DNA of 64,000 bases, from the NCBI GenBank assembly GCA_049521895.1, contig JBEKOJ010000001.1, forward strand, positions 34,717 through 98,716, read 5' to 3'. The stretch's first letter is position 1; every line of letters begins with the position of its first letter. The notes beneath the pieces were generated by a model that did no database searches, was not told the origin of the DNA, and saw only the letters and a list, made by a program, of their open reading frames with translations. Made by a program: the position numbers and the translations under genes. Source of the stretch: Candidatus Saccharimonadales bacterium. GTDB lineage: Bacteria > Patescibacteriota > Saccharimonadia > Saccharimonadales > UBA10212. Of this stretch, positions 14,957 through 33,831 are shown piece after piece.

Positions 14957-14957
14957 T

Positions 14958-17580: not shown

Positions 17581-17717
17581 CCATTTTGAAAGACAACCTC
17601 TGGTTTTCCTGGTAGCGCTCCAGTCGGCAAAGCCGCCCCTAAAGGGCAAGTTGGGCTACTACCTTTCCTCTAACACAATTGTTACAAGAGTTTGTTTTCG
17701 GATATAATCGCATTTAA

Positions 17718-18362
17718 ATGGCGCAAATTACAGAAATCTACAAACGCTACAAAATTATGCCTTCTCTCCAAGAGCACCAACTGAGGGTGGCGGCTGTGGC
17801 CAAACAGATTTGCGATAACTTCGAAAAGCCAGTCAACCAAGGGACTATCATAAAAGCCTGCTTAATTCACGACATGGGCAACATATTGAAGTCTGACCTG
17901 ACCCAGTTTCCGGGATTCTTGGAGCCCGAGGGCCTAGAATATTGGGAAGAAATTAAGCGACAAACAGTACGCAAATACCATACGACCGACTCGCACCACT
18001 TATCTTTAGGAATTGCCAGCGAGCTTAACATGCCCACGGAGGTCATAGAGCTAGTTAACTGCATCACCTACTCAAACACGAAGTCTAACTCTACTACCAA
18101 AAACTTCGGGAAGAAAATCTGTGCCTATTCCGATATGCGGGTCGGCCCTTATGGCGTGATACCACTGGAAGACAGAATTGCCGATTTGCACATACGCTAT
18201 GCAGGTTGGAAGAACACCACTTCGCGCCCTAGATACGAAGCTGACGATAACCTTCGTGAAATAGAAAAACAAATCTTCGCGCACGCCTCAATAAGGCCGC
18301 CAGATATCACTGATGAATCAATCAGATCTATAGTCGAGCAACTTCGAACTTACGAAATTTAG
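17718..18362 (+). CDS. HD-domain phosphohydrolase
   Basis: HD dyad in LIHDMGNI. 214 aa. TATAAT (17703-17708) sits 9 nt before the ATG. Confidence 0.6.
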   Translation: MAQITEIYKRYKIMPSLQEHQLRVAAVAKQICDNFEKPVNQGTIIKACLIHDMGNILKSDLTQFPGFLEPEGLEYWEEIKRQTVRKYHTTDSHHLSLGIASELNMPTEVIELVNCITYSNTKSNSTTKNFGKKICAYSDMRVGPYGVIPLEDRIADLHIRYAGWKNTTSRPRYEADDNLREIEKQIFAHASIRPPDITDESIRSIVEQLRTYEI

Positions 18363-18564
18363 CTCTAGACGCTATAATCTGTAGTTAAGATGACTAGATT
18401 TACCATGGTCAATGCATTTGTTCTTGGGCGAGGAAACAGCGAGGAGCGCAAATGAGGTGTATGAAGCAATACATTGAATGCGCACCGGAGCTAGCTGACA
18501 ATGCTCAAGGACAGAAACTACTTCAGCATGCCGGGCTTTGCTCGGCAACAGGAAGGAGTGGTGC

Positions 18565-19998
18565 ATGAGTGTGGGCTTAGATGATATTGTCTCTCTGGCT
18601 AAACGAAGAGGGTTTATTTACCCCAGCAGTGAGATTTACGGCGGCCTGTCCGGCGTTTATGACTACGGCCCGCTGGGTGTTATGCTCAAGCACAATTTGG
18701 AAAACATCTGGTGGAGCAGTTTCGTTACCGGCTGGGACGATATGTATCCCATGGACGCCGCCATTTTGATGAATAAGAAGGTTTGGGAAGCCAGCGGCCA
18801 TGCCGCCGGTTTTAATGACCCACTGGTAGAGTGCGGCAACTGCCATAGTATCTTTCGGGCAGATAAAATCGATACTAAAAAATGTCCAACTTGCGGCAAA
18901 GAAGGCACGTTTGGGAAGCCCTTAGATTTTAATTTGATGTTCAGAACCCAAACAGGTCCGACCTGGGGATCTTTTGAACCAACAGAAAAATCACATCTCA
19001 CAGGGACGTTAACGGAAAAAGGTAAAGATGGCCGGCCGTTAAGAGAATTTACAATAAAAGAACTCGATCGAAATAATAGTGTAATGGTTTATGACAAACA
19101 AGGTCTAACCTATCTGCGGCCGGAAACGGCGCAGGGTATGTTTGTGAACTTTAAGAATGTTTTGGACACCGTCCAGCCGGACTTGCCATTTGGCCTAGCG
19201 CAAATCGGCAAGGGCTTTCGTAACGAAATTTCTCCGCGCGACTGGCTGTTTCGCATGCGGGAGTTCGAGATGATGGAGATAGAATATTTTATAAAGCCTA
19301 CCGAATGGGAAAAATACTTCGAGCAGTGGCGCGCCGGCATGATGACCTTCTTCAAAAAAGTCGGCTTGTCGGAAAGTATGGTACACGAAAAAGAAGTGCC
19401 AGAAGCTGACCGCGCGCATTATTCCCAGCGTACTATAGATTTTGAGTTTGATTTTCCGTTCGGTAAGGACGAGCTAGCCGGCTTGGCTTACAGGGGTGAT
19501 TATGATCTTAGCAACCACCAAAAAACTTCCGGCAAAGATTTGCGCTACCGGCCAAAAAACGGCGGCGAGCCGTTTTTGCCGCATGTCATAGAGCCGAGTT
19601 TTGGTGTGGAACGCTTAGTCTTGGCTTTGCTAGCTTCGGCTTACGCCGAGGATGAGCAGGGCGGGGAAAAGCGTACATATCTTAAGCTGAATGCCTCAGC
19701 CGCCCCTGTTAAAGTTGCTGTATTTCCGCTGCTCAAAAACAAGCCGGAACTGGCCAAAAAAGCCCGCGAAGTTTATAAAATGCTCAAAGACGAACTGGGT
19801 TCAGTAGAATTTGATGATAACGGCAACATCGGCAAGCGTTACCGCCGCCAAGACGAAATCGGCACCCCCTATTGCATAACTATTGATTTTGAAACGTTAG
19901 ATAACAACACTGTCACCCTCCGCAACCGCGACACCACCGAGCAGCAGCGGATAAAAGTCGAAGGCTCACTGCAAATGCTCAAATACTTCAAATGGTAA
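18565..19998 (+). CDS. glyQS: glycine--tRNA ligase (single-chain class II type)
   Basis: Sequence IVSLAKRRGFIYPSSEIYGG, class II motifs (FRNEISPR, GVERL) and a Cys4 insert CGNC...CPTCG. ATG follows an AGGAAGGAG SD. Confidence 0.9.
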   Translation: MSVGLDDIVSLAKRRGFIYPSSEIYGGLSGVYDYGPLGVMLKHNLENIWWSSFVTGWDDMYPMDAAILMNKKVWEASGHAAGFNDPLVECGNCHSIFRADKIDTKKCPTCGKEGTFGKPLDFNLMFRTQTGPTWGSFEPTEKSHLTGTLTEKGKDGRPLREFTIKELDRNNSVMVYDKQGLTYLRPETAQGMFVNFKNVLDTVQPDLPFGLAQIGKGFRNEISPRDWLFRMREFEMMEIEYFIKPTEWEKYFEQWRAGMMTFFKKVGLSESMVHEKEVPEADRAHYSQRTIDFEFDFPFGKDELAGLAYRGDYDLSNHQKTSGKDLRYRPKNGGEPFLPHVIEPSFGVERLVLALLASAYAEDEQGGEKRTYLKLNASAAPVKVAVFPLLKNKPELAKKAREVYKMLKDELGSVEFDDNGNIGKRYRRQDEIGTPYCITIDFETLDNNTVTLRNRDTTEQQRIKVEGSLQMLKYFKW

Positions 19999-20187
19999 TT
20001 ACAATGACTATCCGTCACCGTGGTACTACCGAACAAAAAAGAGTTCCCATACCAGATCTTAGCTCAAACTTCGTCTGAGTAAGATTAATAACAATCCGAT
20101 ATCCTACGGATAATCATAGTGTAGTATTATTAGCATCATATTAAGGTGTTACATATATCATTCCGATAACCAGATTAAAAATTTTAC

Positions 20188-20235
20188 TTGACTATTTGAA
20201 TCCGATTAGTTAATCTGTTAGATAGCTAATCTAAC
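20188..20235 (+). promoter_or_regulatory. promoter TTGACT-17-TAATCT with overlapping 7-N5-7 inverted repeat GTTAGAT/ATCTAAC
   Basis: -35 at 20188-20193, -10 at 20211-20216, IR at 20217-20223 and 20229-20235. Confidence 0.45.
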
Positions 20236-20251
20236 TATGGAGGTTAAAAAA

Positions 20252-20821
20252 ATGGCTGCAAAAATTATGGATACATTGTGGGATTTTATAAAATCGGCAG
20301 AACGCAGTAGGAAATATCCACCTAATACCGCCCTGGGTCTAAGAAATGCTCTTAAATTGTTTGAAACGGAGCTCAACGAAGAAGAAGCCCAGTCACTGGA
20401 TGTCTTTAAGGACCATTTGGAGCAAATTTACAGGGGTGTTTTTGAAAAAAATAAGAACCGGATGTCAGTGGGTTCTATCGAAACATACAAAACTCGAGTA
20501 AAAAGAGTACTGAGCGATTACGGCAAGTACGGCCTTGAACCATCTAAATTTGCCTCTTGGTCGCCCACAGTTAAGCGGGTAAGCACTCGGAAGAAGAAAA
20601 CTGAAGATACGAATTCGGTCGTTGGTCCTTCGGTTGGGGTTCCGGCAGATGAATCCCTTGCACCTCCACGGACGCTCCCCTCTGGTGTCATCGTTGTTTT
20701 TCCTAAATCGTTAGATAAACATGTTAGTTTCGGAGAGTTTGGGGATGTATTAAAAGCACTCGACACAAAGGCTAATAATCTGAAGGAAGATACTAATGGA
20801 CAAGGTGAAGACGAATCTTAG
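20252..20821 (+). CDS. hypothetical protein, partner of NYN gene 1 (alternative start 20237)
   Basis: GGAGG sits 9 nt before ATG 20252. Helical N-terminal half, acidic tail EDES. No confident domain. Confidence 0.4.
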   Translation: MAAKIMDTLWDFIKSAERSRKYPPNTALGLRNALKLFETELNEEEAQSLDVFKDHLEQIYRGVFEKNKNRMSVGSIETYKTRVKRVLSDYGKYGLEPSKFASWSPTVKRVSTRKKKTEDTNSVVGPSVGVPADESLAPPRTLPSGVIVVFPKSLDKHVSFGEFGDVLKALDTKANNLKEDTNGQGEDES

Positions 20822-21338
20822 GCCCAAAAGAGTATTTGCTTTCATTGATAGCCAGAACCTACATCTTGGCGTTCAGAGCGCTGGCTGGAAACTGGATTTT
20901 CGCAAATTCCGGCTATATCTTAAAAATAAATATCAAGTATCAAAAGCCTATCTTTTCATCGGCCAAGTTCCTGGGAACGAAGCTATGTACGCTCACCTAC
21001 AAGAAATGGGCAACATTCTAGTATTCAAGCCCACAATGCAGTACAAGAAGGCTGGAAAGATAAAAACGAAAGGCAACGTCGACGCCGAGGTCGTTCTTTA
21101 TGCCAGTGCGATAACATTTAGCGATTATGATCATGCCATCATCGTAAGTGGTGACGGAGATTTTCACTGCCTCATCGAATTCCTAGAAAATAAGGGCAAA
21201 TTACTAAAACTTATGACACCGAATGATCACTACTCGAGTTTATTGCGTCGTTTCTCATCCAAGATCGTGAGGGTTGATCAACTAAAGAGTGCGCTGGAAC
21301 TAAAAAAGACTGGCATCGGCGGTCGGTCGAAACCTTAG
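20796..21338 (+). CDS. NYN (LabA-like, PIN-related) domain protein, paralog 1
   Basis: Sequence AFIDSQNLHLGV ... KGNVDAEVV ... IIVSGDGDF. Overlaps the upstream ORF by 26 nt. Confidence 0.7.
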   Translation: MDKVKTNLRPKRVFAFIDSQNLHLGVQSAGWKLDFRKFRLYLKNKYQVSKAYLFIGQVPGNEAMYAHLQEMGNILVFKPTMQYKKAGKIKTKGNVDAEVVLYASAITFSDYDHAIIVSGDGDFHCLIEFLENKGKLLKLMTPNDHYSSLLRRFSSKIVRVDQLKSALELKKTGIGGRSKP

Positions 21339-21476
21339 GCCTATCCAGTCATCGTGATATCTAAATAATACACCAGTATTTTATTATTGTCAAACATATT
21401 TTTAACACTTTGTAAAGTCTGTGGAAAAGCATAAGTGTTTTAGAGGCAATGGGTAATACTTAACAACCTAAGCAAT

Positions 21477-21503
21477 CCGGATTTCCCAAAACCAGCGTAA
21501 AAT
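21477..21503 (+). promoter_or_regulatory. cassette junction motif, long form, copy 1
   Basis: Sequence ccggatttcccaaaaccagcgtaaaat. A separate TATAAT (21529-21534) sits 8 nt before ATG 21543. Confidence 0.6.
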
Positions 21504-21542
21504 AATTTTCAAAATGATTTAATTAGTATATAATATTGTTCT

Positions 21543-22169
21543 ATGTCGGTTGGTTATGATCCCTCTAGAGGGCCAGTGTATGAGCCTATTACAGACACCC
21601 AGAAGGCACGGATCGGTAGTGCGCTTACTGAGAGAATTGGTCAAGCTGTTATTGTTGATAAATTGGCTAATCGGAGTAGGAACTTCTGGATCTTTAGTTT
21701 TGAAGAACCAGAAGCCGTGATCGACTCAGAAGGCACAATCCCCCAGTATATGATTGTGGCGAGCGAAGGGGACATGGGTGCTACGAGGTGGTTTCGTGTG
21801 TTGGTAAAAAAGACGGGTCTAGGCTCTGGTACACCCAAGACAGAAGCCTATCGCGTGGAAATGTTAAAAAACACTCAATTTGCCGCGAAAGTCAGCAAGG
21901 CAACAGTAAGGCTGGATCATGTAGATGCGACCATTGAAGACAGCGGAGAAGATCAAGACGACCTGGAGGTTGGCTATGTAGTAGCTGCAGTGAGCGGCGG
22001 ACTAACTCCGGCTGCTCAGTCATACTCGGACGTTATGGAATCTGAGCTAGGGTCTCAATGGGCGCTAGGGGAATGTTCTAGCGACGAAGCTGAGCATTTT
22101 GCCGATTTGCTTATCAACTCCAAAGTCAGCGACTTGTCCTTACCAGACCTTGCGACAGGTAACTACTAG
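21543..22169 (+). CDS. hypothetical protein
   Basis: 208-aa ORF with an acidic C-terminal half. No recognisable domain. Confidence 0.4.
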   Translation: MSVGYDPSRGPVYEPITDTQKARIGSALTERIGQAVIVDKLANRSRNFWIFSFEEPEAVIDSEGTIPQYMIVASEGDMGATRWFRVLVKKTGLGSGTPKTEAYRVEMLKNTQFAAKVSKATVRLDHVDATIEDSGEDQDDLEVGYVVAAVSGGLTPAAQSYSDVMESELGSQWALGECSSDEAEHFADLLINSKVSDLSLPDLATGNY

Positions 22170-22178
22170 CCAAGGCAG

Positions 22179-22206
22179 CCCGGATTTCCCAAAACCAGCG
22201 TAAAAT
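22179..22206 (+). promoter_or_regulatory. cassette junction motif, long form, copy 2
   Basis: Sequence cccggatttcccaaaaccagcgtaaaat. TAAAAT ends 8 nt before ATG 22215. Confidence 0.6.
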
Positions 22207-22214
22207 ATAACCAA

Positions 22215-23006
22215 ATGTATAGGTCATTTACGGCTGCGGATTACAGAAAGCACTTTGGTCTGCCTACGGATTATTCCATCGATGGCATCCTTTGCGCAGG
22301 GTCAATTTACTCACACGAAGAAAACGGGCAGCTTAAAGCCGGTTTGAAGGCCATAAACCGACCCTATACTTTACATCAAATAGCCGTAACCGGCAAAAAC
22401 AACCAAGATTTCCTAAGATTTATTAAAGAACTTCATATTGGCAATAAAAAATTGTGGTATTTTTGCATTTACGGCGGTGCCTTACTGAGTGAATACTTGC
22501 ATTTTGGCTACCTTTTCGGAGCCAAGAAAACCATTCTAGTCGGCATGTGTGGGGGATTGAACCAACAGGCGAATGTCGGCGACATTATTATTCCGGATAA
22601 GGCTCATTCCGATGGCAGTACCGCGCATATGTACGACCGTGAGCACCAAGAGCTCCAACCAAGCGACAAATCGCTTTCTGCAGAATTAGAAAAAGTCTGC
22701 CAAGCGCACGGGCTTAACGTGCACCGCGGCAAGACCATGACTTGCCAAGCGATGATAGCTGAAACCTGGGAGGATGTGCAGACCTGGTCCAAAGCCGGAT
22801 ATTTAGGCGTGGAGATGGAGGCCGCTACAGTCTTTGCTGTTTCTAGTCATTTTGAAAAACCTGCCGCCGCCATTTTATCGGTTGCCGATAACTTGATTAA
22901 ACAAGAAACGAACTTGCATGAAAAATATCATGCCGCGGAGGAACACCGATTGGAAGTAAAACAGGCACAATATCAGATCGCAATCAAGATTTTGTTGAAC
23001 GACTAA
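22215..23006 (+). CDS. PNP/UDP-1 family nucleoside phosphorylase
   Basis: Sequence GVEMEAATVFAVS, as in DeoD/Udp-type enzymes. 263 aa. Confidence 0.65.
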   Translation: MYRSFTAADYRKHFGLPTDYSIDGILCAGSIYSHEENGQLKAGLKAINRPYTLHQIAVTGKNNQDFLRFIKELHIGNKKLWYFCIYGGALLSEYLHFGYLFGAKKTILVGMCGGLNQQANVGDIIIPDKAHSDGSTAHMYDREHQELQPSDKSLSAELEKVCQAHGLNVHRGKTMTCQAMIAETWEDVQTWSKAGYLGVEMEAATVFAVSSHFEKPAAAILSVADNLIKQETNLHEKYHAAEEHRLEVKQAQYQIAIKILLND

Positions 23007-23023
23007 GTCTCGCCAAACTTCGG

Positions 23024-23050
23024 CCCGAATTCCCAAAACCAGAGTAAAAT
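23024..23050 (+). promoter_or_regulatory. cassette junction motif, long form, copy 3
   Basis: Sequence cccgaattcccaaaaccagagtaaaat, 8 nt before ATG 23059. Confidence 0.6.
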
Positions 23051-23058
23051 AAGCCAAG

Positions 23059-23448
23059 ATGAGAGCTAATAAACTTAGCATTCAAATTGACTGGCCGGTC
23101 AAAGATGTTTTTAACTTCGTAACCGATCCAGCTAACACTCCAAAATGGATAGATCTTATAGCCAAGGAAGAAACAAACGAGTGGCCAGTGAAACTTGGCA
23201 CTATCTACAAAAATCAAGACAAGACGGGAGAGTGGAGAAATCTCGAGATGACAGAATTTGAAGAAAATAAAATGTTCGTTATGACCAACCGCGCGACTGG
23301 CTATCACGTGAGATATACACTGACACAGCTTGGTAATAACTCAACTGAGCTAGAGTATTACGAATGGATAGATAACGGTGGGTTCGAAGAACCTTTCACG
23401 ATACAACCCTTGGAAAAGCTAAAATCAATTCTTGAAAAACCAGCGTAA
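23059..23448 (+). CDS. SRPBCC (START/AHSA1-like) small ligand-binding protein
   Basis: 129 aa. The N-terminal pattern I..DWPVKDVFNFVTDPANTPKW is typical of SRPBCC proteins. Low-information call. Confidence 0.45.
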   Translation: MRANKLSIQIDWPVKDVFNFVTDPANTPKWIDLIAKEETNEWPVKLGTIYKNQDKTGEWRNLEMTEFEENKMFVMTNRATGYHVRYTLTQLGNNSTELEYYEWIDNGGFEEPFTIQPLEKLKSILEKPA

Positions 23449-23451
23449 AAT
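23435..23451 (+). promoter_or_regulatory. cassette junction motif, core form, copy 4 (contains the stop of 23059..23448)
   Basis: Sequence aaaaaccagcgtaaaat. TAAAAT ends 6 nt before ATG 23458. Confidence 0.6.
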
Positions 23452-23457
23452 AATTCT

Positions 23458-23856
23458 ATGAGTAAGACCTACTGCGTAGCTTCGGCGATCATTAAAAACA
23501 GCGACAAATACTTCATTGCTAAGCGGGCAGATAGCAAAAAATTCGCCCCGGGCCACTGGGAGTTTATAAGCGGTTTTATAGAAGACCACGAAGCCGCAGA
23601 AGATACAATTCTGAAAGAACTCCGCGAAGAAATTAATGCTGAGGGTAGGATTGAAAAAGTACTGGACATCTACCAATTTGGTGATGAACACGGCCGCTGG
23701 ATTGTCGTGCCATTTGTGATTAGCGTAAAAGACTCAAACATTCAAACCAACCCAGCCGAACACAGCGAGGGCAGGTGGGTCGCCTGGGAAGAGCTGGAAC
23801 AGATGCCGGGGGAAGATCTACAAGAACAAGTCAGAGCCCTAAAAACCCGTCTGTAA
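23458..23856 (+). CDS. NUDIX hydrolase
   Basis: Nudix box GFIEDHEAAEDTILKELREEINAEG. 132 aa. Confidence 0.8.
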   Translation: MSKTYCVASAIIKNSDKYFIAKRADSKKFAPGHWEFISGFIEDHEAAEDTILKELREEINAEGRIEKVLDIYQFGDEHGRWIVVPFVISVKDSNIQTNPAEHSEGRWVAWEELEQMPGEDLQEQVRALKTRL

Positions 23857-23860
23857 TCAG

Positions 23861-23886
23861 CCCGGATTTCCCAAAACCAGCGTAAA
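23861..23886 (+). promoter_or_regulatory. cassette junction motif, long form, copy 5, split by a MITE after ...GCGTAAA
   Basis: Sequence cccggatttcccaaaaccagcgtaaa | MITE | taaaat (23957-23962), then 8 nt to ATG 23971. Confidence 0.6.
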
Positions 23887-23956
23887 CCCGGTAGTGAGCT
23901 ATCGAGATTTAATAATGTATCCGCAAAGCGGATAGACTCGAAAGTCTACTACGGGG
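23887..23956. mobile_element. MITE copy C (70-bp internally deleted derivative), target duplication TAAA
   Basis: TIRs are cccggtagtgagctatcgag and ctcgaaagtctactacgggg. TAAA is present on both flanks. Confidence 0.65.
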
Positions 23957-23970
23957 TAAAATAAAACCAA

Positions 23971-24678
23971 ATGAAGGCTGAGGATGTAAAAGCAGCTCTG
24001 GATAAATACACCGATAAAAAAGCTGCAGAATTTGCCCAGCGATTTTTCAAAACCTATGATGGCGGTTATGCCCAGGGCGATAAGTTCCTGGGGCTTAAAG
24101 TTCCGGTAACTCGGGAAGTGTGTAAAAAATTCAAAAATTTATCACTGCCAGAAATAGAAAAATTGCTGGCTAGCCCGATTCACGAGCACCGACTAGCAGC
24201 ACTAATTATCATGACCGAACAGGCCAAGAAAGCGGACTCGGAACATAAAAAGCAGCTTTATGATTTCTACCTAAGTCATACCAACCGTGTAAACAACTGG
24301 GATTTAGTGGACACCAGCTGCCCGGAAATTGTCGGTAGCTATTTACTCGATAAAGACCATACACCCCTGCATAAGCTAGCCCGCTCCAAAAACCTATGGG
24401 AAAAACGGATCGCCATGGTTAGCACCCTAAACTTTATACGTGCCGGCCAGCTAGATGATACCTTTGCCGTAGCCGAAATTTTGCTGCACGACGACCACGA
24501 CTTAATACATAAAGCCGTGGGCTGGATGCTGCGTTGTGCCGGCGACGTGGACAGGGAAGCGCTACTGAAATTTTTAGACGTCCATGCTCACGAACTTCGC
24601 CGCACAGCGCTCCGTTATTCATTGGAGCATCTAACACCAGACCAAAAACTGCACTATATAAACCCAAAAACAGAGTAA
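23971..24678 (+). CDS. DNA alkylation repair protein (AlkD/AlkC-like HEAT-repeat glycosylase family)
   Basis: Sequence AEFAQRFFKT...GDKFLGLKVP ... HEHRLAALIIM ... NNWDLVD. 235 aa. Confidence 0.65.
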   Translation: MKAEDVKAALDKYTDKKAAEFAQRFFKTYDGGYAQGDKFLGLKVPVTREVCKKFKNLSLPEIEKLLASPIHEHRLAALIIMTEQAKKADSEHKKQLYDFYLSHTNRVNNWDLVDTSCPEIVGSYLLDKDHTPLHKLARSKNLWEKRIAMVSTLNFIRAGQLDDTFAVAEILLHDDHDLIHKAVGWMLRCAGDVDREALLKFLDVHAHELRRTALRYSLEHLTPDQKLHYINPKTE

Positions 24679-24681
24679 AAT
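24666..24681 (+). promoter_or_regulatory. cassette junction motif, core form, copy 6 (contains the stop of 23971..24678)
   Basis: Sequence aaaaacagagtaaaat, 6 nt before ATG 24688. Confidence 0.6.
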
Positions 24682-24687
24682 AGGGCT

Positions 24688-25248
24688 ATGAAAAACGCGA
24701 TTTTATTACACGGCACAGACGGTAATCCAGAACACAACTGGTTCCCATGGCTCAAGCGAAAACTGGAAGCCAAGGGCTATAAAGTCTGGGCGCCAGTATT
24801 GCCCGGAAACCATACCCCGAATAGAAAGATCTATAATGATTTTATTTTCTCGCAGGGCGGGGACTTAACGGATGGCATAGTCGTTGGCCATTCATCTGGA
24901 GCAGTGAGCGTACTGAATTTACTTATGGATAAACGGTGTCCAAAAGTGAATCTTGCAGTAATGGTCAGCGCTTGGAAGGGCGGGGTACCGCTCCGATACG
25001 AACCGGACAACCAGCAATTCAAAGATTTATTCCCGCCGGATGGTTTCGATTTTAAACTGATAAAGGAAAAAGCAGGGAAAATAGCTTTTCTTCATAGTGA
25101 TAACGACCCCTATTGCCCGCTTGAACAAGCAGAATACCTTGCTAAACAGCTACACGCACCACTTACTGTCATACATGAGGGCGATCACTTAGGCTCCAAT
25201 CTCACAGAATTACCAGAGCTTTGGAAGATAATAGAACCAGTCTTGTAG
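24688..25248 (+). CDS. YdeN/RBBP9-type alpha/beta serine hydrolase
   Basis: Sequence ILLHG...NWFPWLK ... VGHSSGA ... D ... H. 186 aa. Confidence 0.55.
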   Translation: MKNAILLHGTDGNPEHNWFPWLKRKLEAKGYKVWAPVLPGNHTPNRKIYNDFIFSQGGDLTDGIVVGHSSGAVSVLNLLMDKRCPKVNLAVMVSAWKGGVPLRYEPDNQQFKDLFPPDGFDFKLIKEKAGKIAFLHSDNDPYCPLEQAEYLAKQLHAPLTVIHEGDHLGSNLTELPELWKIIEPVL

Positions 25249-25256
25249 AGGGAATA

Positions 25257-25288
25257 CCCCATAGTAATATCTGCGATATACTACGGGG
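25257..25288. repeat. 32-bp hairpin with MITE-like termini (CCCCATAGTA ... TACTACGGGG), preceded by GGGAATAC
   Basis: Read directly from the sequence. No target duplication, so this may be a solo-TIR remnant or a terminator. Confidence 0.4.
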
Positions 25289-25354
25289 CAGGCTTAACGA
25301 GTCAAGCAACTGGCAGTATTGCTAATAGACAGTAAAGATTATATAATTTATCTT

Positions 25355-25936
25355 ATGACTAGATCCGGAGCAGAAATATCACCCGTCGAATCCAGTGAGG
25401 AGCTGGCACAAGCGTGGAAAGAATATGGATTCGATCCGCCTGGAGGCGTAGATGCTTGGGCGGAAGCCGTAGAAGCTGATCGAAATGGCGTTTTAGTCGC
25501 GCGACTTTCTGCGATGGCTGTTGGTTTTGTGACCGTGAAGTGGTCCGGACCTTCTGTGCGCGAGCCTGAAGTTACGGAGGCGCTTACTACTGAATTTCCG
25601 GATGAGCAACCAATCCCAACCATCTATTCGCTTAACGTCCAGCAGCAACATCGAAGGAAGGGGATAGGCTGGGACCTGATGGTTGCTACCGAACACGCCA
25701 TAATAGATAGGCCTGGCACTGTCCTGCGTTCTGCTCTGAGTGTGCAAACTAATAACAAGGATGCCCTGCCACTTTATATATCTTTAGGCTACCAAATCGT
25801 GCCATATAGGGGTCGAAAAATGGTGGTTCTGGATCGCCCTGAGTATGACGAGCAAGGTCAACTAGTTCGTAGCACTAAACCAGTTTTTATTATGACCAAA
25901 GATTTATCTGACCTTCGCAAAAACAGAGTAAAATAG
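25355..25936 (+). CDS. GNAT family N-acetyltransferase
   Basis: Acetyl-CoA motif QQHRRKGIGWDLM. TATAAT (25342-25347) sits 7 nt before ATG 25355. The track start at 25319 is TTG. Confidence 0.65.
   Translation: MTRSGAEISPVESSEELAQAWKEYGFDPPGGVDAWAEAVEADRNGVLVARLSAMAVGFVTVKWSGPSVREPEVTEALTTEFPDEQPIPTIYSLNVQQQHRRKGIGWDLMVATEHAIIDRPGTVLRSALSVQTNNKDALPLYISLGYQIVPYRGRKMVVLDRPEYDEQGQLVRSTKPVFIMTKDLSDLRKNRVK
25919..25934 (+). promoter_or_regulatory. cassette junction motif, core form, copy 7
   Basis: Sequence aaaaacagagtaaaat, 9 nt before ATG 25944. The GNAT ORF reads through it in another frame. Confidence 0.6.
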
Positions 25937-25943
25937 GTCCAGC

Positions 25944-26660
25944 ATGAGCCCTGGAACTACAAGACCGCGCAACGAAGTTTTCGATAGGGAATTAGTGCGC
26001 AGCATCTTGGACAAAATGGGCAGGGACGACAGATATACCACGCGCGAAATGGCAACCCTGACTTTTGAACAACTCTATTCCCAGCTTAATCAGCCGGAAA
26101 TTGAAGTAGTAAAACAGCTGCTTGCACTTAGTCCTGAAAAACTTGGATTTCTAGGCCCGTTTGTGAGCCTAGAAGGGCCACCCAAAAATCTGGTCAAGCT
26201 AGAGGGCCAGGTATTTGAAAGGGATGGTAAAAAAGTTACCATTGCCAACCAATATTTGCCGCAACCTGTCTGGCAGGCTTTTTTAGAAATGCAAGAAGCT
26301 ACCAAACAGGATATAGGCAGCAAACTGATGGTAGAGTCGGGCTACCGCTCGCCGGCCCATCAATCTATAACTTTTCTAACGTATTTAGAAAAATCAGATT
26401 TTGATATTAAATATGTAGTTTCTGGAGTGGCTCTACCTGGCTATAGCCAGCATGGCGATCCGGTTAACACAGCCGTGGATGTTATAAATCAAGACGGCAT
26501 ACCAACAGATGAAAAGCCGCAACTTTTTGCCAATACAAACGAGTACCAGTGGCTGATTAAGAACGCCAAACAATTTGATTTCTATCTGTCTTACCCAGAG
26601 GGCAATGAATTTGATGTTAAGTTTGAACCTTGGCACTGGCAATACAGAAAAACAGAGTAA
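25944..26660 (+). CDS. VanY / peptidase M15B-type D-alanyl-D-alanine carboxypeptidase
   Basis: Sequence SGYRSPAHQ ... SQHGDPVNTAVDV ... EPWHWQY (zinc ligands of H-D-H type). Confidence 0.7.
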   Translation: MSPGTTRPRNEVFDRELVRSILDKMGRDDRYTTREMATLTFEQLYSQLNQPEIEVVKQLLALSPEKLGFLGPFVSLEGPPKNLVKLEGQVFERDGKKVTIANQYLPQPVWQAFLEMQEATKQDIGSKLMVESGYRSPAHQSITFLTYLEKSDFDIKYVVSGVALPGYSQHGDPVNTAVDVINQDGIPTDEKPQLFANTNEYQWLIKNAKQFDFYLSYPEGNEFDVKFEPWHWQYRKTE

Positions 26661-26663
26661 AAT
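26648..26663 (+). promoter_or_regulatory. cassette junction motif, core form, copy 8 (contains the stop of 25944..26660)
   Basis: Sequence aaaaacagagtaaaat. The next gene has a 31-nt leader with an AAGGAG SD. Confidence 0.55.
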
Positions 26664-26694
26664 AGATCGAGAACATAACTTAAGGAGTAGGTAT

Positions 26695-27036
26695 ATGGCT
26701 GGCGGCCGGGAAGAACAAGTCCTTGAAGGAACAAACGGGAGGCTATTCCGGTGGCCCGATGGTAAGCCCCCCGAAATAACAACATTGCTTGTGGACGGAA
26801 CCGTAGATTCACTAATAGCTACAGGCATATTCCGGTCGCTGGGTTTTGGATCGGTTATAGAGCGGATGAAGACTAACCCGAATTTCCCCAGGCAGTGCCC
26901 TGAGCTGTGGATGGTACATCCACCGCAAGAGGAAGGAGGGCAAGGGGTTGTCGAGGTGGCCCGGGGGCTACGCGAGATCCACATCTCATTCGTCAGTAAA
27001 TTAGTGGAAGTGCAGCCAGTACCAGAGGTACACTAG
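26695..27036 (+). CDS. hypothetical protein (113 aa)
   Basis: ATG follows AAGGAG. The in-frame upstream part of track ORF 26575 overlaps the VanY-like gene. Confidence 0.35.
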   Translation: MAGGREEQVLEGTNGRLFRWPDGKPPEITTLLVDGTVDSLIATGIFRSLGFGSVIERMKTNPNFPRQCPELWMVHPPQEEGGQGVVEVARGLREIHISFVSKLVEVQPVPEVH

Positions 27037-27044
27037 AGTAGGTA

Positions 27045-27070
27045 AGGAATACTTAACTCGTTAAGTAATT
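27045..27070. repeat. GGGAATAC-hairpin repeat, copy 2
   Basis: Sequence aggaatacttaactcgttaagtaatt, abutting ATG 27072. Confidence 0.55.
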
Positions 27071-27071
27071 T

Positions 27072-27542
27072 ATGAAAAATTACATCCCACCCGAAAAACG
27101 ATTCAAGCTGATTCTCTCTGTCTATTTAATTTTAATCAAAGATGGGAAAACTTTATTATTACGGCGTCAAAACACGGGCTACGAAGATGGCAACTATGGC
27201 CTTGTGGCAGGACACGCCGATGGTAATGAAGTGGCTAGGGAAGCGCTGTGCAGGGAGGTGTTGGAAGAATCAGGCCTGAGATTTAAGCCTAAAGATTTCC
27301 GGTTCGTCCACTTAATGCACCGCAAGGCCAATGATGAACGGGTGGACGTTTTCTTTACTGCCGACAAATGGCAAGGCGAACCAAAAATCATGGAGCCAGA
27401 AAAGTGCGACGATCTCAGCTGGTTTCCGCTAGACAATTTGCCGAGCAACACCATTCCGTATATTCGCCAAGCTATAGAATGCTTTCAAAAAGGTATTTAT
27501 TACTCCGAATTCGGCTGGAATGAACGGGCGGGGAATACTTAA
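27072..27542 (+). CDS. NUDIX hydrolase (second, unrelated copy)
   Basis: Nudix box GHADGNEVAREALCREVLEESGL. 156 aa. Confidence 0.8.
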   Translation: MKNYIPPEKRFKLILSVYLILIKDGKTLLLRRQNTGYEDGNYGLVAGHADGNEVAREALCREVLEESGLRFKPKDFRFVHLMHRKANDERVDVFFTADKWQGEPKIMEPEKCDDLSWFPLDNLPSNTIPYIRQAIECFQKGIYYSEFGWNERAGNT

Positions 27543-27557
27543 CTTGTTAAGTAATTT
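27531..27557. repeat. GGGAATAC-hairpin repeat, copy 3 (supplies codons GNT + stop of the Nudix gene)
   Basis: Sequence gggaatacttaacttgttaagtaattt. Confidence 0.55.
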
Positions 27558-27575
27558 ATAAAAATAACTTGATTT

Positions 27576-27609
27576 AAAAAAAGGCGAGGGGGCGGCGTTG
27601 CCGCCCCCT
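27576..27609 (-). terminator. GC-rich hairpin + T-run terminator for the high-GC minus-strand gene
   Basis: Minus strand reads agggggcggcaacgccgccccctcgccttttttt. Confidence 0.5.
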
Positions 27610-27624
27610 GTTGTTCGCGCGCTG

Positions 27625-28158
27625 CTACTTGAGCGTGGCGATGACCTGAGGCGTAAGCCTGAGGACGACGCCGCGCAGATCGGTTTCGATCAGCTGGCCC
27701 ATGGTCTTGAACCCCATGGCCGTGACCGCCTGGTACTTGCCTCCCGAGTTCGGGCTGCGCCAGTCCAGAACGCCGTCGTCGCGGTAGTCCTTGAAGTAGA
27801 CGACGCGGTTGTAGCTGAAGACGGCACTGGCCCTCTTTGCGTCCGCGATGCGGACGTTTTCGGCCGGTACGACGATCTTGATCGTCTGACCGCAGCCGTT
27901 GCGAGCGTTGAGCGTGATCATGAAGGCGGTGTTGTCGCTGGCCTTCGTAACCGCGCAGACTGCGTGCGGCATGTTCGGGTTCCAGCCGCGAACCTGCAGG
28001 AAGTTCTGGACCGTGACTTCGCGGTTGAAGTCGTGGTCGGCCCACGGGTTCCAGTTGCTCGGCCAGATCGCGTTGATGCCGATCGCAATCGTGGCGATGA
28101 TCGCCGCGCAAATCACGACCCACACTGCGTCGAATGCGAAATCGGTAAGCCTCCGCAT
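27625..28158 (-). CDS. membrane-anchored hypothetical protein on a high-GC foreign segment
   Basis: 177 aa with N-terminal TM AVWVVICAAIIATIAIGI. AAGGA SD, own terminator, GC-rich third codon positions. The other four overlapping ORFs here are high-GC artefacts. Confidence 0.55.
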   Translation of the reverse strand: MRRLTDFAFDAVWVVICAAIIATIAIGINAIWPSNWNPWADHDFNREVTVQNFLQVRGWNPNMPHAVCAVTKASDNTAFMITLNARNGCGQTIKIVVPAENVRIADAKRASAVFSYNRVVYFKDYRDDGVLDWRSPNSGGKYQAVTAMGFKTMGQLIETDLRGVVLRLTPQVIATLK

Positions 28159-28270
28159 TTCTTCACCATCCTTCCCCGAGTTATCGGAGTAGAAGTTGAA
28201 ATCTCAGCGCGAACTGTAATATTCTACAATATTAACGCATAAATAGCAATACCATTCTCAAATATGATAA

Positions 28271-28296
28271 CTCGGATTTCTAAAACAGGGTAAAAT
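28271..28296 (+). promoter_or_regulatory. cassette junction motif, diverged long form, copy 9
   Basis: Sequence ctcggatttctaaaacagggtaaaat, 8 nt before ATG 28305. Confidence 0.55.
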
Positions 28297-28304
28297 AAGG
28301 CAGC

Positions 28305-28850
28305 ATGAAGAAACTAGGGATTTTATCTGGAACTTTTGATCCGGTGCACAAGGGGCACGTTGATTTCGCGCTTGAGTCCATAAAAGTTTGCGGGCTAGAG
28401 CGGGTATATTTGCTGCCAGAGCGGTCACCCCGCCGAAAAAAAAATCTAACCGATTTCGCCCATCGTCTTGAGATGTTAAAACTAGCCGCAGGGTCCCACA
28501 AGCAATTAGAAGTTTTGCAGGTATCCGAGCCCCGATTTACAAACGCTGTCACTTTGCCAAAGCTCCGCTCGCAATTTGCCCCGGACCAGCTGGTGTTTTT
28601 AATGGGTTCTGATGTGGCAGCCACCTTAGGTGGTTGGCCCGGGCTGAAGCCGTTAATAGTTGGTTTGCGCAACAATGACGATAGGCGCGAGTTGGAAAAG
28701 CTTCTAAGTAAGCTAAGAGTTTTGCGCCAGACGACATTTATAACCAGTCCGCGTGCCCAGCTCGCTTCCAGCCAACTGCGGAACAGCCAGCTAAAAGACC
28801 TCGATCCATTGGTGCTTGCTTACATTAAGCGCCACAAACTTTATAGCTGA
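28305..28850 (+). CDS. nadD: nicotinate/nicotinamide-mononucleotide adenylyltransferase (NadD-like cytidylyltransferase fold)
   Basis: Sequence GTFDPVHKGH (HxGH) and C-terminal SSxxxR-like LASSQLRN. 181 aa. Confidence 0.7.
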   Translation: MKKLGILSGTFDPVHKGHVDFALESIKVCGLERVYLLPERSPRRKKNLTDFAHRLEMLKLAAGSHKQLEVLQVSEPRFTNAVTLPKLRSQFAPDQLVFLMGSDVAATLGGWPGLKPLIVGLRNNDDRRELEKLLSKLRVLRQTTFITSPRAQLASSQLRNSQLKDLDPLVLAYIKRHKLYS

Positions 28851-28899
28851 GCGCGGTATCCTACTGGTGTAAAATGGAAAGATAAAGGAAGGATTTCTT

Positions 28900-29520
28900 A
28901 TGAAGTTAACCAGATATTATCAAAGTTGTTTATTGATTGAAGAGGGCAGGGTGCGGATTTTGATTGACCCCAGCGGCCACGAAGCCGGAAATTTTGACAA
29001 GTTTGGCAAGCTGGACGGCGTGCTATACACCCACGAGCACACGGATCACTTCGACCCGGATTTGGCACAAAAATTTGCCGGCAGCGGTGTAGCAGTTTAC
29101 GCTAACGCTAGCACTGCCAAACAAATGAAATTGCAGCCGACTGTCATTTCCGACAATCAGGAATTTGACATTAAGGGCCTAAAAATCCAGGCCAGGGAAC
29201 TGCCGCATTGCTTGATGGTTAGCGGCGACGCTGGCCCACAAAACACCGGCTATTTAATTGCTGGGCGGCTGTTCCACCCGGGCGACGGTACCAACCTGGC
29301 GGGCCTGAGCACTGAAATCCTAGCTGTACCCATCACCGGCCCGGATATCTCCTTAAAAGACGCTTGCGACTTTACAAAACAAGTCTCAGCCAAGATTGCC
29401 GTGCCAATACACTACGATTTTATCGGCACCAAGCCGGAAATTTTTGAAATGTTTGCTAAAAACTCCCAGTTGCCATTCGAGGTGAAGGTGCTGGGGCCGG
29501 GCGAAAGCACCGAGCTATAA
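28900..29520 (+). CDS. MBL-fold metallo-hydrolase
   Basis: Sequence YTHEHTDHFD (HxHxDH). 206 aa. AAGGAAGG SD. Confidence 0.7.
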   Translation: MKLTRYYQSCLLIEEGRVRILIDPSGHEAGNFDKFGKLDGVLYTHEHTDHFDPDLAQKFAGSGVAVYANASTAKQMKLQPTVISDNQEFDIKGLKIQARELPHCLMVSGDAGPQNTGYLIAGRLFHPGDGTNLAGLSTEILAVPITGPDISLKDACDFTKQVSAKIAVPIHYDFIGTKPEIFEMFAKNSQLPFEVKVLGPGESTEL

Positions 29521-29636
29521 AAACATAAGCTTTACCATAAAAACAGCTCGTTGTAAAAGTAACTAGCAAAATATTATTGACTAGCTCTCAGCTAAAGTGC
29601 CATATTATTCTCAGCTAAGTAATTGGAGGCACGGAA

Positions 29637-30215
29637 ATGAAGGGCATGGGACGCTGGCTGGTGCTGCTCAGGGGCATGGCGGTTATTGGTGCGGTAGGAG
29701 TTATAACAACTGGCGCTAGTTTTGCGGCCCTGCAGAGCCAGAACGCTTCGCTGACTGGTAATATTATCAATAGCGGTACCGCCGACCTTAGGATTAGCAA
29801 AGACGGCACTACTTTCTATTCGCCGTCAACCACCGGTTATACTTTTGACGGCGTCGTGCCGGGCGGAGCGGCTGCTCCAGTAGGCGGTAATTTGTTTTAT
29901 CTTAAAAATTACGGCAGCGCCAATCTGGCCATCAAAGTCGGCATCAACGCCGCGCCATCCAACGTCAACAATGTGGATCTGAGCAAAGTTTATTTTCAGT
30001 TTACGAGGGTGGATAGCAGTGGCAGCCCCGTTAGCTTATCGCTAAAATCCTTAGTGGATAGTTATGCCGCCGGAGGCACGCCACTGAGTGACACCGTAAA
30101 CGCTGGCTCAACCGCGACTTACAGCGTTAAAGCTTCTATGGATATGGATGCCTTTGCCGGCTCGAGCGCCAGCCTTACCGGCATCAACCTGTCCTTTATT
30201 GGCACCGGCGCTTAA
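29637..30215 (+). CDS. TasA/camelysin-like secreted protein with SipW-type signal peptide
   Basis: N-terminus ...AVIGAVGVITTGASFAALQSQNASLTGNIINSGTADLRIS resembles the TasA-type A-x-F...GTLDL signal region. GGAGG SD. Followed by a signal peptidase gene. Confidence 0.55.
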   Translation: MKGMGRWLVLLRGMAVIGAVGVITTGASFAALQSQNASLTGNIINSGTADLRISKDGTTFYSPSTTGYTFDGVVPGGAAAPVGGNLFYLKNYGSANLAIKVGINAAPSNVNNVDLSKVYFQFTRVDSSGSPVSLSLKSLVDSYAAGGTPLSDTVNAGSTATYSVKASMDMDAFAGSSASLTGINLSFIGTGA

Positions 30216-30235
30216 ACGCAGGAGAGGAAAACAGC

Positions 30236-30760
30236 TTGTTTAAAAATCTGGCGCACCACCTTTCTATTATCACCTTGGGGCTTTTTACCATTGTCGGAAT
30301 TATTGGCTTGGTGCGTTGGCAGGGCAGTGGTATCCGTTTATACAGCGTGAAAGATAGTTCTATGGCGCCGCTGCTGCTGCCGGGAGATTTGGTGTTGGCT
30401 GCCAGCCGGCAGACTGCCCAGCCAGGAGACATAGTCAGCTATCTTAGCCCGCAAGACCAACACACAATTATTGCCCGCAGATTAGTGGCGGTTGATCCAT
30501 CTAAAGGTATTATTACCACTAAAGCCGATAACTTGGTACAGGCCGACCCGCCGGTGATAACCGATGCGGTGCTGGGCAAAACGCTTAAAGCCGTGCCGCT
30601 GTTAGGATATTTGCTGGATACGCTGCGCCGCCCTGCGGGCCTGGCTGTCTTGGTTTATGTACCGGCTTTTGTGATCATTCGCTCCGAGGTCAAACGTCTA
30701 AGCCGGCAATTTGGCCGCCGCCCGTACAATCTCAAATTACTGACCTCTGTTACGAGCTAA
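30236..30760 (+). CDS. signal peptidase I, SipW/ER (S26B)-like
   Basis: N-terminal TM and catalytic-Ser motif SSMAPLLLPGDLV, then GDIVSY...H. TTG start after an AGGAGAGG SD. C-terminal TM. Confidence 0.6.
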   Translation: MFKNLAHHLSIITLGLFTIVGIIGLVRWQGSGIRLYSVKDSSMAPLLLPGDLVLAASRQTAQPGDIVSYLSPQDQHTIIARRLVAVDPSKGIITTKADNLVQADPPVITDAVLGKTLKAVPLLGYLLDTLRRPAGLAVLVYVPAFVIIRSEVKRLSRQFGRRPYNLKLLTSVTS

Positions 30761-30780
30761 TCTAAACTTCAATTTTTTAT

Positions 30781-30796
30781 CAAAAACCAGTATAAT
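30781..30796 (+). promoter_or_regulatory. junction-motif variant CAAAAACCAGTATAAT
   Basis: TATAAT ends 10 nt before ATG 30807. Confidence 0.5.
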
Positions 30797-30806
30797 AACC
30801 CCTGTT

Positions 30807-31034
30807 ATGAATAATGTAAATTCAGGCGAACATTTACCCCCAACGCCTAGCGGCGATGAGCTTGATCAAGAGAGGGGAATCCTCGAAAATCCACAAGGTG
30901 GCCCGGTGGCAATCACCTATATGAAGGGCAACGAAGTTATTCACTATAGATTCATTAGCCGAGAAGAGTTTGATAGATGGCACGAAACTCACCCCGGACA
31001 AGTAATTGAAGAAATAGATGCCGAAGAATCCTAA
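30807..31034 (+). CDS. small hypothetical protein, partner of NYN gene 2
   Basis: 75 aa with acidic tail AEES. Overlaps the NYN start by 17 nt. Confidence 0.4.
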   Translation: MNNVNSGEHLPPTPSGDELDQERGILENPQGGPVAITYMKGNEVIHYRFISREEFDRWHETHPGQVIEEIDAEES

Positions 31035-31572
31035 GAAACCGCGGGCTTACGCCTTTATCGACAGTCAAAATCTCAACCTGGGCGTACAAAAAATGGGCTG
31101 GAAAATGGACTGGCGTAAATTCCGCCAATATTTGCAGCACGAGTACAACGTAGAAAAAGCCTACATGTTCATTGGCTATGTGGCCGACAACATCGCCATG
31201 TATGAGCAGCTGCACGACATGGGCTACTTGATAGTTCTGAAACGCACGCTGGAAGTCAAAGCCCAGGAAGGCGAAAAAACCGATGACGGCGAGCCCCAGA
31301 AACCAACAGTGAAGGGGAATATTGACGCCGAGCTGGTGCTGTGGGCCATGAAAGAGCTGCCCAATTACGATAAGGCTATTATCGTATCTGGCGACGGCGA
31401 CTTTTTTGCCCTAGTGGAATACCTGGAGCAGAAGCAAAAGCTGCTGCACTTAATGGTGCCAAACTGGCAATATTCATCACTTCTCAAAGAGTACGAAAAA
31501 TACACCGTGCGGATTGATAAACTACGCCGCCAACTGTCTTACCACGACCGCCGCTTCAAAAAGAATACTTAA
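31018..31572 (+). CDS. NYN (LabA-like) domain protein, paralog 2
   Basis: Sequence AFIDSQNLNLGV ... KGNIDAELV ... IIVSGDGDF. Collinear with 20796..21338. Confidence 0.7.
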   Translation: MPKNPKKPRAYAFIDSQNLNLGVQKMGWKMDWRKFRQYLQHEYNVEKAYMFIGYVADNIAMYEQLHDMGYLIVLKRTLEVKAQEGEKTDDGEPQKPTVKGNIDAELVLWAMKELPNYDKAIIVSGDGDFFALVEYLEQKQKLLHLMVPNWQYSSLLKEYEKYTVRIDKLRRQLSYHDRRFKKNT

Positions 31573-32345: not shown

Positions 32346-32461
32346 CTAGAACTTCTATCATTAAACCCCATTGTAGATCTCTTGAGATAGGTGGACAAAT
32401 GTTTGTTTTACCACAACCCGTATTTAGGAAATAGGCAAATAGTAGTGATGCTACAATAGGG

Positions 32462-33736: not shown

Positions 33737-33795
33737 GCCTTCCATCCACCCAAGGTGGACTGGCGGCCAATCTATAGATTATCCACAACCTAAGC

Positions 33796-33824: not shown

Positions 33825-33831
33825 TTAATCC

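Follow-up and report, generated by a model that had tools for sequence, protein, structure and literature searches.

A junction motif with the layout of a leaderless-gene promoter supplies the C-terminal codons and stop codons of upstream genes in a Saccharimonadales accessory array

The stretch of DNA analysed here, 64,000 nucleotides (nt) of the contig JBEKOJ010000001.1 (positions 34,717 to 98,716; assembly GCA_049521895.1, Candidatus Saccharimonadales bacterium) and referred to as the window, carries at 21.5-28.3 kb an array of small genes that are punctuated by a short junction motif, AAAAMCAGMGTAAA(ATA). Nine copies are present, eight of them exact and one with an indel (28281), and all nine lie on the plus strand and are co-oriented with the plus-strand genes. 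An earlier note on this DNA had pointed out that several unrelated genes end inside the motif and share a tail encoded by it. The copies and the genes that end in them are listed below; protein families were assigned with Pfam, tails are given up to the stop codon, and labels such as L110 denote related loci or contigs that were fetched for comparison.

21474-21503, plus strand: long-form motif copy AATCCGGATTTCCCAAAACCAGCGTAAAAT, an orphan; a separate TATAAT at 21529-21534 belongs to the next gene (ATG 21543)
22179-22214, plus strand: long-form copy, TAAAAT 22201-22206, 8-nt spacer, ATG 22215 (PNP_UDP_1-type phosphorylase); upstream stop 22167-22169
23024-23058, plus strand: long-form copy, TAAAAT 23045-23050, 8-nt spacer, ATG 23059 (SRPBCC); upstream stop 23004-23006
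23059-23448, plus strand: SRPBCC/Polyketide_cyc2 gene, 129 aa, ending ctt gaa aaa cca gcg TAA (stop 23446-23448), tail KPA; the next motif copy contains its last three codons and its stop
23436-23457, plus strand: short-form copy, TAAAAT 23446-23451 giving the SRPBCC stop, 6-nt spacer, ATG 23458 (NUDIX)
23861-23886, plus strand: long-form copy, interrupted after GCGTAAA by an inserted hairpin element; upstream stop 23854-23856
23957-23970, plus strand: TAAAAT plus spacer AAAACCAA, before ATG 23971 (AlkD)
23971-24678, plus strand: AlkD-type DNA alkylation repair gene (DNA_alkylation), 235 aa, ending cca aaa aca gag TAA (stop 24676-24678), tail PKTE from the next motif copy
24666-24687, plus strand: short-form copy, TAAAAT 24676-24681 giving the AlkD stop, 6-nt spacer, ATG 24688 (Ser_hydrolase)
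25355 (ATG; or TTG 25319) to 25936, plus strand: GNAT acetyltransferase gene, in the second motif frame, ending aaa aac aga gta aaa TAG (stop 25934-25936), tail KNRVK
25919-25943, plus strand: short-form copy, TAAAAT 25929-25934, TAG 25934-25936 being the GNAT stop, 9-nt spacer, ATG 25944 (VanY)
25944-26660, plus strand: VanY-type D-Ala-D-Ala carboxypeptidase gene, 238 aa, ending aga aaa aca gag TAA (stop 26658-26660), tail RKTE
26648-26694, plus strand: short-form copy, TAAAAT 26658-26663 giving the VanY stop, 31-nt leader carrying AAGGAG, a Shine-Dalgarno (SD) sequence, at 26682-26687, ATG 26695 (113-aa open reading frame)
28271-28304, plus strand: long-form copy CTCGGATTTCTAAAACAGGGTAAAAT, 8-nt spacer, ATG 28305 (cytidylyltransferase-like), behind a convergent minus-strand gene and its terminator

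The claim that three open reading frames (ORFs), namely SRPBCC, AlkD and VanY, stop at the TAA of the motif with the tails KPA, KTE and KTE is borne out by the sequence and the ORF list, and the GNAT gene does cross the same motif in another frame, as had been stated. All four end in copies of AAAAMCAGMGTAAAATA, and the stop-to-start distance at the short-form junctions is 6-13 nt. A further statement, that the upstream stop lies 10-17 nt ahead of the long-form copies, holds for the two at 22179 and 23024 but not for the third at 23861, where the gap is 4 nt.

Three parts can be distinguished in the motif: the box TAAAAT, an invariant G directly 5' of it, and an upstream A-tract plus CAGNG. 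The long form adds GGATTTCCC, which in some copies is part of the palindrome AATCCGGATT, and the spacer between TAAAAT and ATG often has a conserved AAAACC(AG). The conserved stretch measures 17-45 nt, identical 18- to 27-mers occur in several copies, and the intergenic spacers of the array consist almost wholly of motif. Direct repeats are found within it (AAAACCAG twice), not inverted ones. Its abundance is far beyond chance: with up to two mismatches AAAAMCAGMGTAAA is matched 15 times against 2.4 expected, a number reached in none of 100 shuffles. A weight matrix trained solely on copies from other genomes finds eight matches in the window, all on the plus strand between 21.5 and 26.7 kb, and none on the minus strand (null mean 0.23). 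The motif is shared by divergent Saccharimonadales metagenome contigs, with the consensus TTTCCCAAAACCAGCGTAAAATAAAACC.

The relatives permit the tails to be followed beyond the window. A census of 19 related loci covered 58 motif copies near which an upstream ORF of 80 codons or more ends. In 38 of these 58 the upstream gene ends within the motif: 18 stop at the TAA or TAG of the box TAAAAT, 12 at a TAA or TAG just after it and 8 within the motif's upstream half, while the remaining 20 stop upstream of the core. No real gene in the census reads through the third frame, which is free of stops in the motif. In L122 and L142, each with 5-8 copies of AAAACCAGCGTAAAATAAAACCAGATG, the upstream genes end in KPA, KTSVK, KSA, KTGVK or LVK.

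The most detailed picture comes from AlkD. Among 120 homologues (59-95% identity) conservation is high through the residues HYM (Y 0.98, M 0.92) and then drops to 0.2-0.3, and the alignment to solved AlkD structures stops at residue 222-223 of 235. The tails that follow include KTE, KA, KSVK, KTSVK, KTGVK, KNRVK, KTRVE and SAK. Where the DNA was fetched, most of them are the same motif translated in frame a (xxx TAA) or frame b (GTA AAA TAR), and small indels between the HYM codons and the box, whose distance ranges from 13 to 22 nt among AlkD orthologues, shift the frame. SAK is an exception, its stop being 6 nt before GCGTAAAAT, so that this tail is not encoded by the motif. VanY orthologues are likewise conserved through EPWHW[QR][YF] (EPWHWQY in the window) and divergent thereafter. 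Their tails RKTE, ..GKPA and ..DNPDS are motif-encoded in the fetched DNA; IVK and ..AKPE are motif-like by their protein sequence alone, and a tail RG also occurs. The SRPBCC orthologue of L115 ends in LEKSDS, in the long-form part of the motif. The expectation that homology would end at the motif is thus confirmed for AlkD and VanY, whose tails lie outside the conserved proteins, and no K-T-E or K-P-A terminus was found as a shared part of the fold, orthologue tails differing by frame. The tails of orthologues differ and are mostly translations of one DNA motif in either of two frames; the common K-[PT]-[AE] and ..VK tails are therefore by-products of a constraint at the DNA level and not functional peptides.

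The nature of this constraint is suggested by the position of the motif relative to the following gene. In seven of the nine copies TAAAAT ends 6, 8 or 9 nt before the ATG of a real gene, with no SD sequence in between; the spacers are AATTCT, AGGGCT, AAGCCAAG, ATAACCAA, AAAACCAA, AGGTCCAGC and AAGGCAGC. The copy at 26648 is the only one in the window that is followed by an SD-bearing leader. Among 80 relaxed matches to the motif, 49 have an ATG or GTG 3-11 nt downstream. In the window at large, a strong TAnnnT box ends 6-9 nt before the ATG of 19 of the 65 genes, against 0-2 genes at each other offset, and an SD-like sequence is present at 8 of the 65. These counts suggest that leaderless transcripts are common in this Saccharimonadales genome. 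TAAAAT is read as a -10 box because other window genes carry TATAAT-type -10 boxes at the same position. The motif is probably a module that combines the core promoter and the start of the downstream gene, with transcripts that would start at or near the ATG.

Several copies favour such a promoter over a signal for translation. One group lies before genes with an SD leader, to which relatives contribute the copy in L118 (near 2228) and a partial copy in L114 (13571; GGTAAAATA only, without the A-tract and CAGNG). Another is the copy before the gene at 28305, which needs its own promoter because a convergent, GC-rich minus-strand gene and a strong terminator precede it; the 146-nt spacer at this site is 100% identical in L110. 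Orphan copies with no start codon directly after them (21498 in the window, 7204 in L110) form a third group. A motif copy also stands between two core genes in L064, an M16 peptidase gene (ending in ..FPKTE) and a Mur ligase gene. In that locus the Mur ligase gene and a gene of 419 aa (2802-4058) are situated between the M16 peptidase and release factor genes, and the left joint carries the motif; in the window the latter two genes are adjacent (1685-1944), with a 259-nt spacer and no motif.

The -10 box TAAAAT, together with the G, the A-tract and CAGNG, would accordingly be expected to drive transcription that starts at the start codon or a few bases from it, and the resulting mRNA would be leaderless or have a very short leader, as for many other genes here. 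The motif marks nearly every gene of a one-directional accessory array. With spacers squeezed out in a small genome, the upstream ORF often enters the presumed promoter and ends at its first in-frame stop, either the TAA inside TAAAAT or, in the second frame, the TAA or TAG right after it. Such a function would also explain why the motif is conserved across divergent genomes.

Some observations sit uneasily with a promoter. No -35-like hexamer (TTGACA-like) is found 16-18 nt upstream, where the long form has ATCCGG or CCCGGA, and a sigma-70 consensus scan flags only two of the nine copies (23933-23962 and 26636-26663). Either the -10 region alone would have to suffice, or the promoter would depend on a different sigma factor or on an activator. 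The stretch that is conserved exceeds what a -10 box requires. Within the 64-kb window the motif is restricted to the array, the backbone genes using TATAAT or TATACT boxes, some with -35-like hexamers; it would therefore be a special promoter class and not the general promoter, and the class perhaps depends on a regulator or an alternative sigma factor. A scan for intrinsic terminators between the array genes found none, so that co-transcription is possible, and the transcription start site is one predicted from the sequence.

The chief competing explanation starts from the variability of the array. In related metagenomic Saccharimonadales the motif punctuates an array between proS and a gene for an MBL-fold protein, within a syntenic backbone of response regulator, RecO, ProRS, [array], MBL-fold, TasA-like, NYN, GH1, MraZ and RsmH genes, the TasA-like gene being accompanied by SipW in close relatives. 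The array is made of one-directional, single-gene units whose content and order differ between relatives. Its gene pool comprises AlkD, NUDIX, SRPBCC, GNAT, VanY, Ser-hydrolase, alpha/beta-hydrolase, glyoxalase, PNPOx, deformylase, peptidase S51, DHO dehydrogenase and OLD-type nuclease genes as well as GC-rich, foreign-looking genes. A metagenome scan yielded about 15 contigs with multiple motif copies, and the VanY protein of the window is 100% identical to one from a metagenome-assembled genome named 'Candidatus Saccharimonadales bacterium'. A scan of a genome collection with a 19-mer gave 109 matches, nearly all of them isolated and due to chance; L022, L064 and L067 alone were informative, and the scan did not recover the window's own genome. 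Viral contigs gave four single chance matches, so that, as far as that collection goes, the motif is no feature of phages. The search for alternative neighbours, which the earlier note had proposed, was successful: the same genes are found next to different neighbours in relatives, and always with the motif at the junction.

The motif could therefore be above all a recombination joint, at which units of motif and gene are exchanged by crossover within the 17-45-nt sequence, the tails being scars. After DNA uptake, the exchange could proceed by RecA-type recombination between short homologous stretches, or else by an unrecognised site-specific recombinase, and it may coexist with a promoter function. 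In keeping with this explanation, relatives differ in the content and order of the array but keep a syntenic backbone on either side of it (response regulator, RecO, ProRS ... MBL, NYN, GH1, MraZ). Six different neighbours occur downstream of AlkD, the Ser-hydrolase gene has three different upstream contexts, and similarity between contexts is confined to the motif. A GC-rich, foreign-looking gene of L110 lies between two direct long-form copies of about 33 nt, where the window has only the hairpin, and two GC-rich genes of L022 are likewise bracketed by motif copies. The NUDIX block is 79% identical to that of L110 exactly from motif to motif (23436-23886), beside blocks of 95-100% identity, and L122 has five identical 27-mers. 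The length of the motif is near the minimum for homologous recombination.

Other features do not agree with a joint. No integrase or recombinase domain was found by Pfam in the window at 402-36070 or in the gene tables of L110, L114 and L148-L152 (6.4-21 kb). Recombinase-type inverted repeats are absent from the motif, and eight junctions folded as single-stranded DNA gave -3.8 to 0 kcal/mol (z -0.7 to +1.35), hence no junction hairpin. The traits of miniature inverted-repeat transposable elements (MITEs) or repetitive extragenic palindromic (REP) elements, that is, terminal inverted repeats, a palindromic body and both orientations, are lacking as well, the motif having a single orientation. 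The joint is not fixed relative to the upstream gene, as the variable distance between the HYM codons and the -10 box of AlkD orthologues illustrates, while the box and spacer stay with the downstream gene (AATTCT before NUDIX in the window, AATTTT in L110). Mosaic identity is found in the backbone too (RecO and ProRS 83-86%, GH1 100%), and since the spacers are nearly all motif, rearrangements that leave the genes intact must break within it or beside it in any case. Copies of one genome are hardly more similar to each other than to those of other genomes (0.56 versus 0.49).

Of the claim that units were joined at the motif, the part that stands is that neighbours differ with the motif at the junction and that some insertions are bracketed by it; a recombinase, a hairpin and a joint at a fixed nucleotide were not found. 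Cassette joining at the motif is plausible but unproven, and as the primary role of the motif it is considered improbable. Recombination guided by the motif is possible and is not needed to explain the tails. The opposition drawn in the earlier note between units joined by recombination and a promoter is moreover a false choice, because the position of TAAAAT, the co-orientation and the lack of SD sequences match the -10 boxes of leaderless genes. Both roles could be combined in one element, promoter and crossover site, which would make the proS-MBL array an integron-like platform for gene capture, each captured gene gaining a leaderless promoter; GC-rich foreign genes would be exchanged within a motif of about 27-45 nt through the cell's own homologous recombination after natural uptake, or by an unrecognised recombinase. 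This combination, too, is given only a modest chance.

A comparison of the window (14932-34869) with L110 showed identity to be mosaic gene by gene, with values of 94%, 83-86% (RecO, ProRS), 79% (NUDIX), 95-98% (AlkD to VanY) and 100% over about 4 kb (TasA-like to GH1). Such values point to frequent recombination in the population.

A second competing explanation places the signal at the RNA level. The array would be transcribed as one long RNA, in which the A-rich, unstructured UAAAAUAAAACCAGAUG would aid SD-independent initiation or couple termination to reinitiation. The absence of intrinsic terminators between array genes, the short stop-to-start distances at the short-form junctions, the lack of structure at the junctions and the rarity of SD-like sequences in the genome are in line with it. 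On the other hand, the best-conserved part of the motif (CAGNG and GTAAAAT) is not simply A-rich and is found at the -10 position of unlinked leaderless genes. The motif also occurs 31-60 nt upstream of genes with their own SD, and the copy before 28305 and the orphan copies speak for a promoter as stated above. The ORF upstream of long-form copies stops well before the motif, so that coupling cannot be its general role. An RNA signal is therefore regarded as very unlikely, and the promoter remains the preferred explanation. The idea that selection acts on the protein, with the K-[PT]-[AE] terminus serving as a functional peptide (a tag for degradation or sorting, for example), draws on the three unrelated window proteins that share it and on the recurrence of KPA and KTE on other proteins of related genomes, and is barely credible given that orthologues of one protein carry KTE, KSVK, KTSVK, KTRVE or KA by change of frame, or SAK, and that column conservation after HYM is so low.

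Two further readings of the sequence were rejected: a promoter for an extracytoplasmic function (ECF) sigma factor (GGATTT ... CGTAA), on the basis of the sequence and general knowledge, because the spacing is about 12 nt and not 16-17, and a dif/Xer site or attC, because the motif has no dyad symmetry.

Other elements of the array are as follows.

23887-23956, plus strand: palindromic hairpin CCCGGTAGTGAGCT...AGTCTACTACGGGG that splits the motif before AlkD (fold z = -6.5), a member of a repeat family
27046-27073, plus strand: second junction motif GGAATACTTAACTCGTTAAGTAATTTAT, before ATG 27072 (NUDIX2)
30782-30806, plus strand: related variant AAAAACCAG-TATAAT, 10-nt spacer, ATG 30807

The hairpin before AlkD is missing from L110, where the motif is intact, and in L022 it shows changes on both sides of the stem. 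Members of its family have the form CCCGGTAGT(A/G)..CTTTCG, a variable stem-loop and CGAAAG..ACTACCGGG, and occur in both orientations. They are found in the window at 10559-10647, 14801-14956 and 23887-23956, with a shorter relative at 25257-25288, and elsewhere in L022 (4155-4236), L152 (about 810-878), L139 (about 1300-1365) and L150 (about 6520-6565). The first of the window copies is in frame inside a methyltransferase ORF of 504 aa (9490-11004). The family, which resembles REP or MITE elements or the Rickettsia palindromic elements, has no match in Rfam; a search of the array and the whole window with Rfam returned one tRNA only, neither the motif nor the hairpin being a described RNA family.

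The second motif is repeated at 27532-27559, where it gives NUDIX2 its tail ..AGNT and its stop, and the NUDIX2 gene (27072-27542), which L110 lacks, is bracketed by the two copies. It has the form GGGAATACTTAAC-NN-GTTAAGTAATTT-ATG with the inverted repeat ACTTAAC/GTTAAGT. Further sites are present at 31563-31572 in the window, in L139 (five genes), in L149 (about 11450) and in L150 (about 8350). The G-N-T tails that it supplies are seen in NUDIX2, in the NYN protein of the window (..KKNT) and in several genes of L139.

Two NYN paralogues of 52% identity (20796-21338 and 31018-31572) are located one at each end of the variable region. The latter is a backbone gene in relatives; the former, together with an ORF of 194 aa (20237-20821), is absent in L110. 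A search for a conserved gene or recombinase at the start of the array found the first genes after ProRS to be unrelated between genomes, with only the two NYN paralogues matching each other. In L151 an OLD-type (TOPRIM/AAA) nuclease gene (3937-5388), likely a defence gene, directly follows ProRS, and its end, ..GIKPA, falls in a motif copy; defence genes can therefore also occur at the start of the array.

The minus-strand gene at 27587-28158 encodes 177 aa with an N-terminal hydrophobic segment and is antisense in the array; its G+C content is 61.8%, compared with 45.8% for the array, and its strong terminator lies at 27587-27609. A different GC-rich antisense gene occupies an equivalent kind of position in L022, and another GC-rich gene family (..IIPAWV) with a conserved leader is common to L110, L151 and L022. 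High-GC organisms are the probable source of these genes. In the window the GNAT gene is intact and encodes 193 aa; in two close relatives, L110 (about 9641) and L112 (about 3459), a 1-nt insertion (GGATGGCCC; window position 25763) shortens the product to 151 aa. This is either an incipient pseudogene or a mistake in assembly. The ORF of 113 aa at 26695-27036, which has no Pfam match, contains CCCGAATTTCCCCAGGCAGTG at 26869-26895 (peptide NPNFPRQ). This sequence resembles the long-form motif CCGGATTTCCCAAAACCAGCG (C-terminal peptide NPDFPKP in L121) and may be a decayed junction that was absorbed into the ORF.

For Saccharibacteria, a phylum in which experiments are very scarce, these results offer a concrete and testable picture of how genes are expressed. 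In this picture a portable promoter and start module of about 30 nt precedes each accessory gene and is compact enough to overlap the gene before it, which makes the motif a candidate ready-made promoter for genetics in these bacteria. Gene callers and curators of protein families should expect motif-encoded tails (KPA, KTE and ..VK, as well as GNT from the second motif) outside the fold. The locus itself, a fixed site at which small detoxification, repair, cell-wall and occasionally defence genes are shuffled between close relatives, is a handle on the flexible gene pool of these genome-reduced episymbionts. If the motif does guide recombination as well, it would represent a cassette system of a new kind.

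Neither the motif nor the array was found described in the literature searched, and a comparative study of Saccharibacteria reported high synteny and no such array (PMC7427843). Integron cassette arrays are similar in having one-directional, small single-gene units at a fixed locus with a repeated junction element, a content that varies among relatives and captured GC-rich, foreign-looking genes. Unlike in integrons, an IntI-type integrase was not found (window 402-36070, L110, L114, L148-L152), there are no attC inverted repeats or hairpins, and the junction element is promoter-like and lies 5' of each gene, integron cassettes being mostly promoterless. The likeness is one of architecture only. 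Phage mosaicism, reportedly framed as 'linker sequences' or a modular view by Susskind and Botstein and by Hendrix and colleagues, poses the same question of recombination at boundary sequences versus random joints filtered by selection; here, however, the setting is a bacterial chromosome, and the boundary sequence is far better conserved and has an evident role in expression.

Conserved intergenic repeats that act as promoters are known from T7-type phages. In halovirus HF2, long conserved intergenic repeats (class I/II) were shown experimentally to be promoters (PMC8707807). Those repeats are viral and few per genome, whereas the present motif is found on a bacterial chromosome, before almost every gene of the array, and overlaps coding ends. 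Overlap of this type is familiar from SD sequences, which can overlap stop codons or coding sequence in short spacers (PMC2784483). In both cases a signal of gene n+1 constrains the last codons and the stop of gene n in a compact genome; the difference is that the signal here would be a promoter -10 region and leaves recurrent, recognisable tails on unrelated proteins.

Promoters of leaderless genes are known from Deinococcus-Thermus and from Actinobacteria other than mycobacteria. In the mycobacterial ones a -10 box TANNNT is located about 6-9 nt before the start codon (PMC4633059). The motif shares with them a TANNNT at a fixed short distance from the ATG, the lack of an SD sequence and the co-orientation, a layout that recurs at unlinked genes of the window. 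It differs in its 17-45 conserved nucleotides, in the confinement of the class to one variable array of the window, in the lack of a -35 element and in regularly overlapping the 3' end of the upstream ORF and giving it its stop. The observation from which the analysis started is real and largely explained: the motif with its recurrent tails is a variation on leaderless promoters and on the overlap of signals with coding sequence, both already known.

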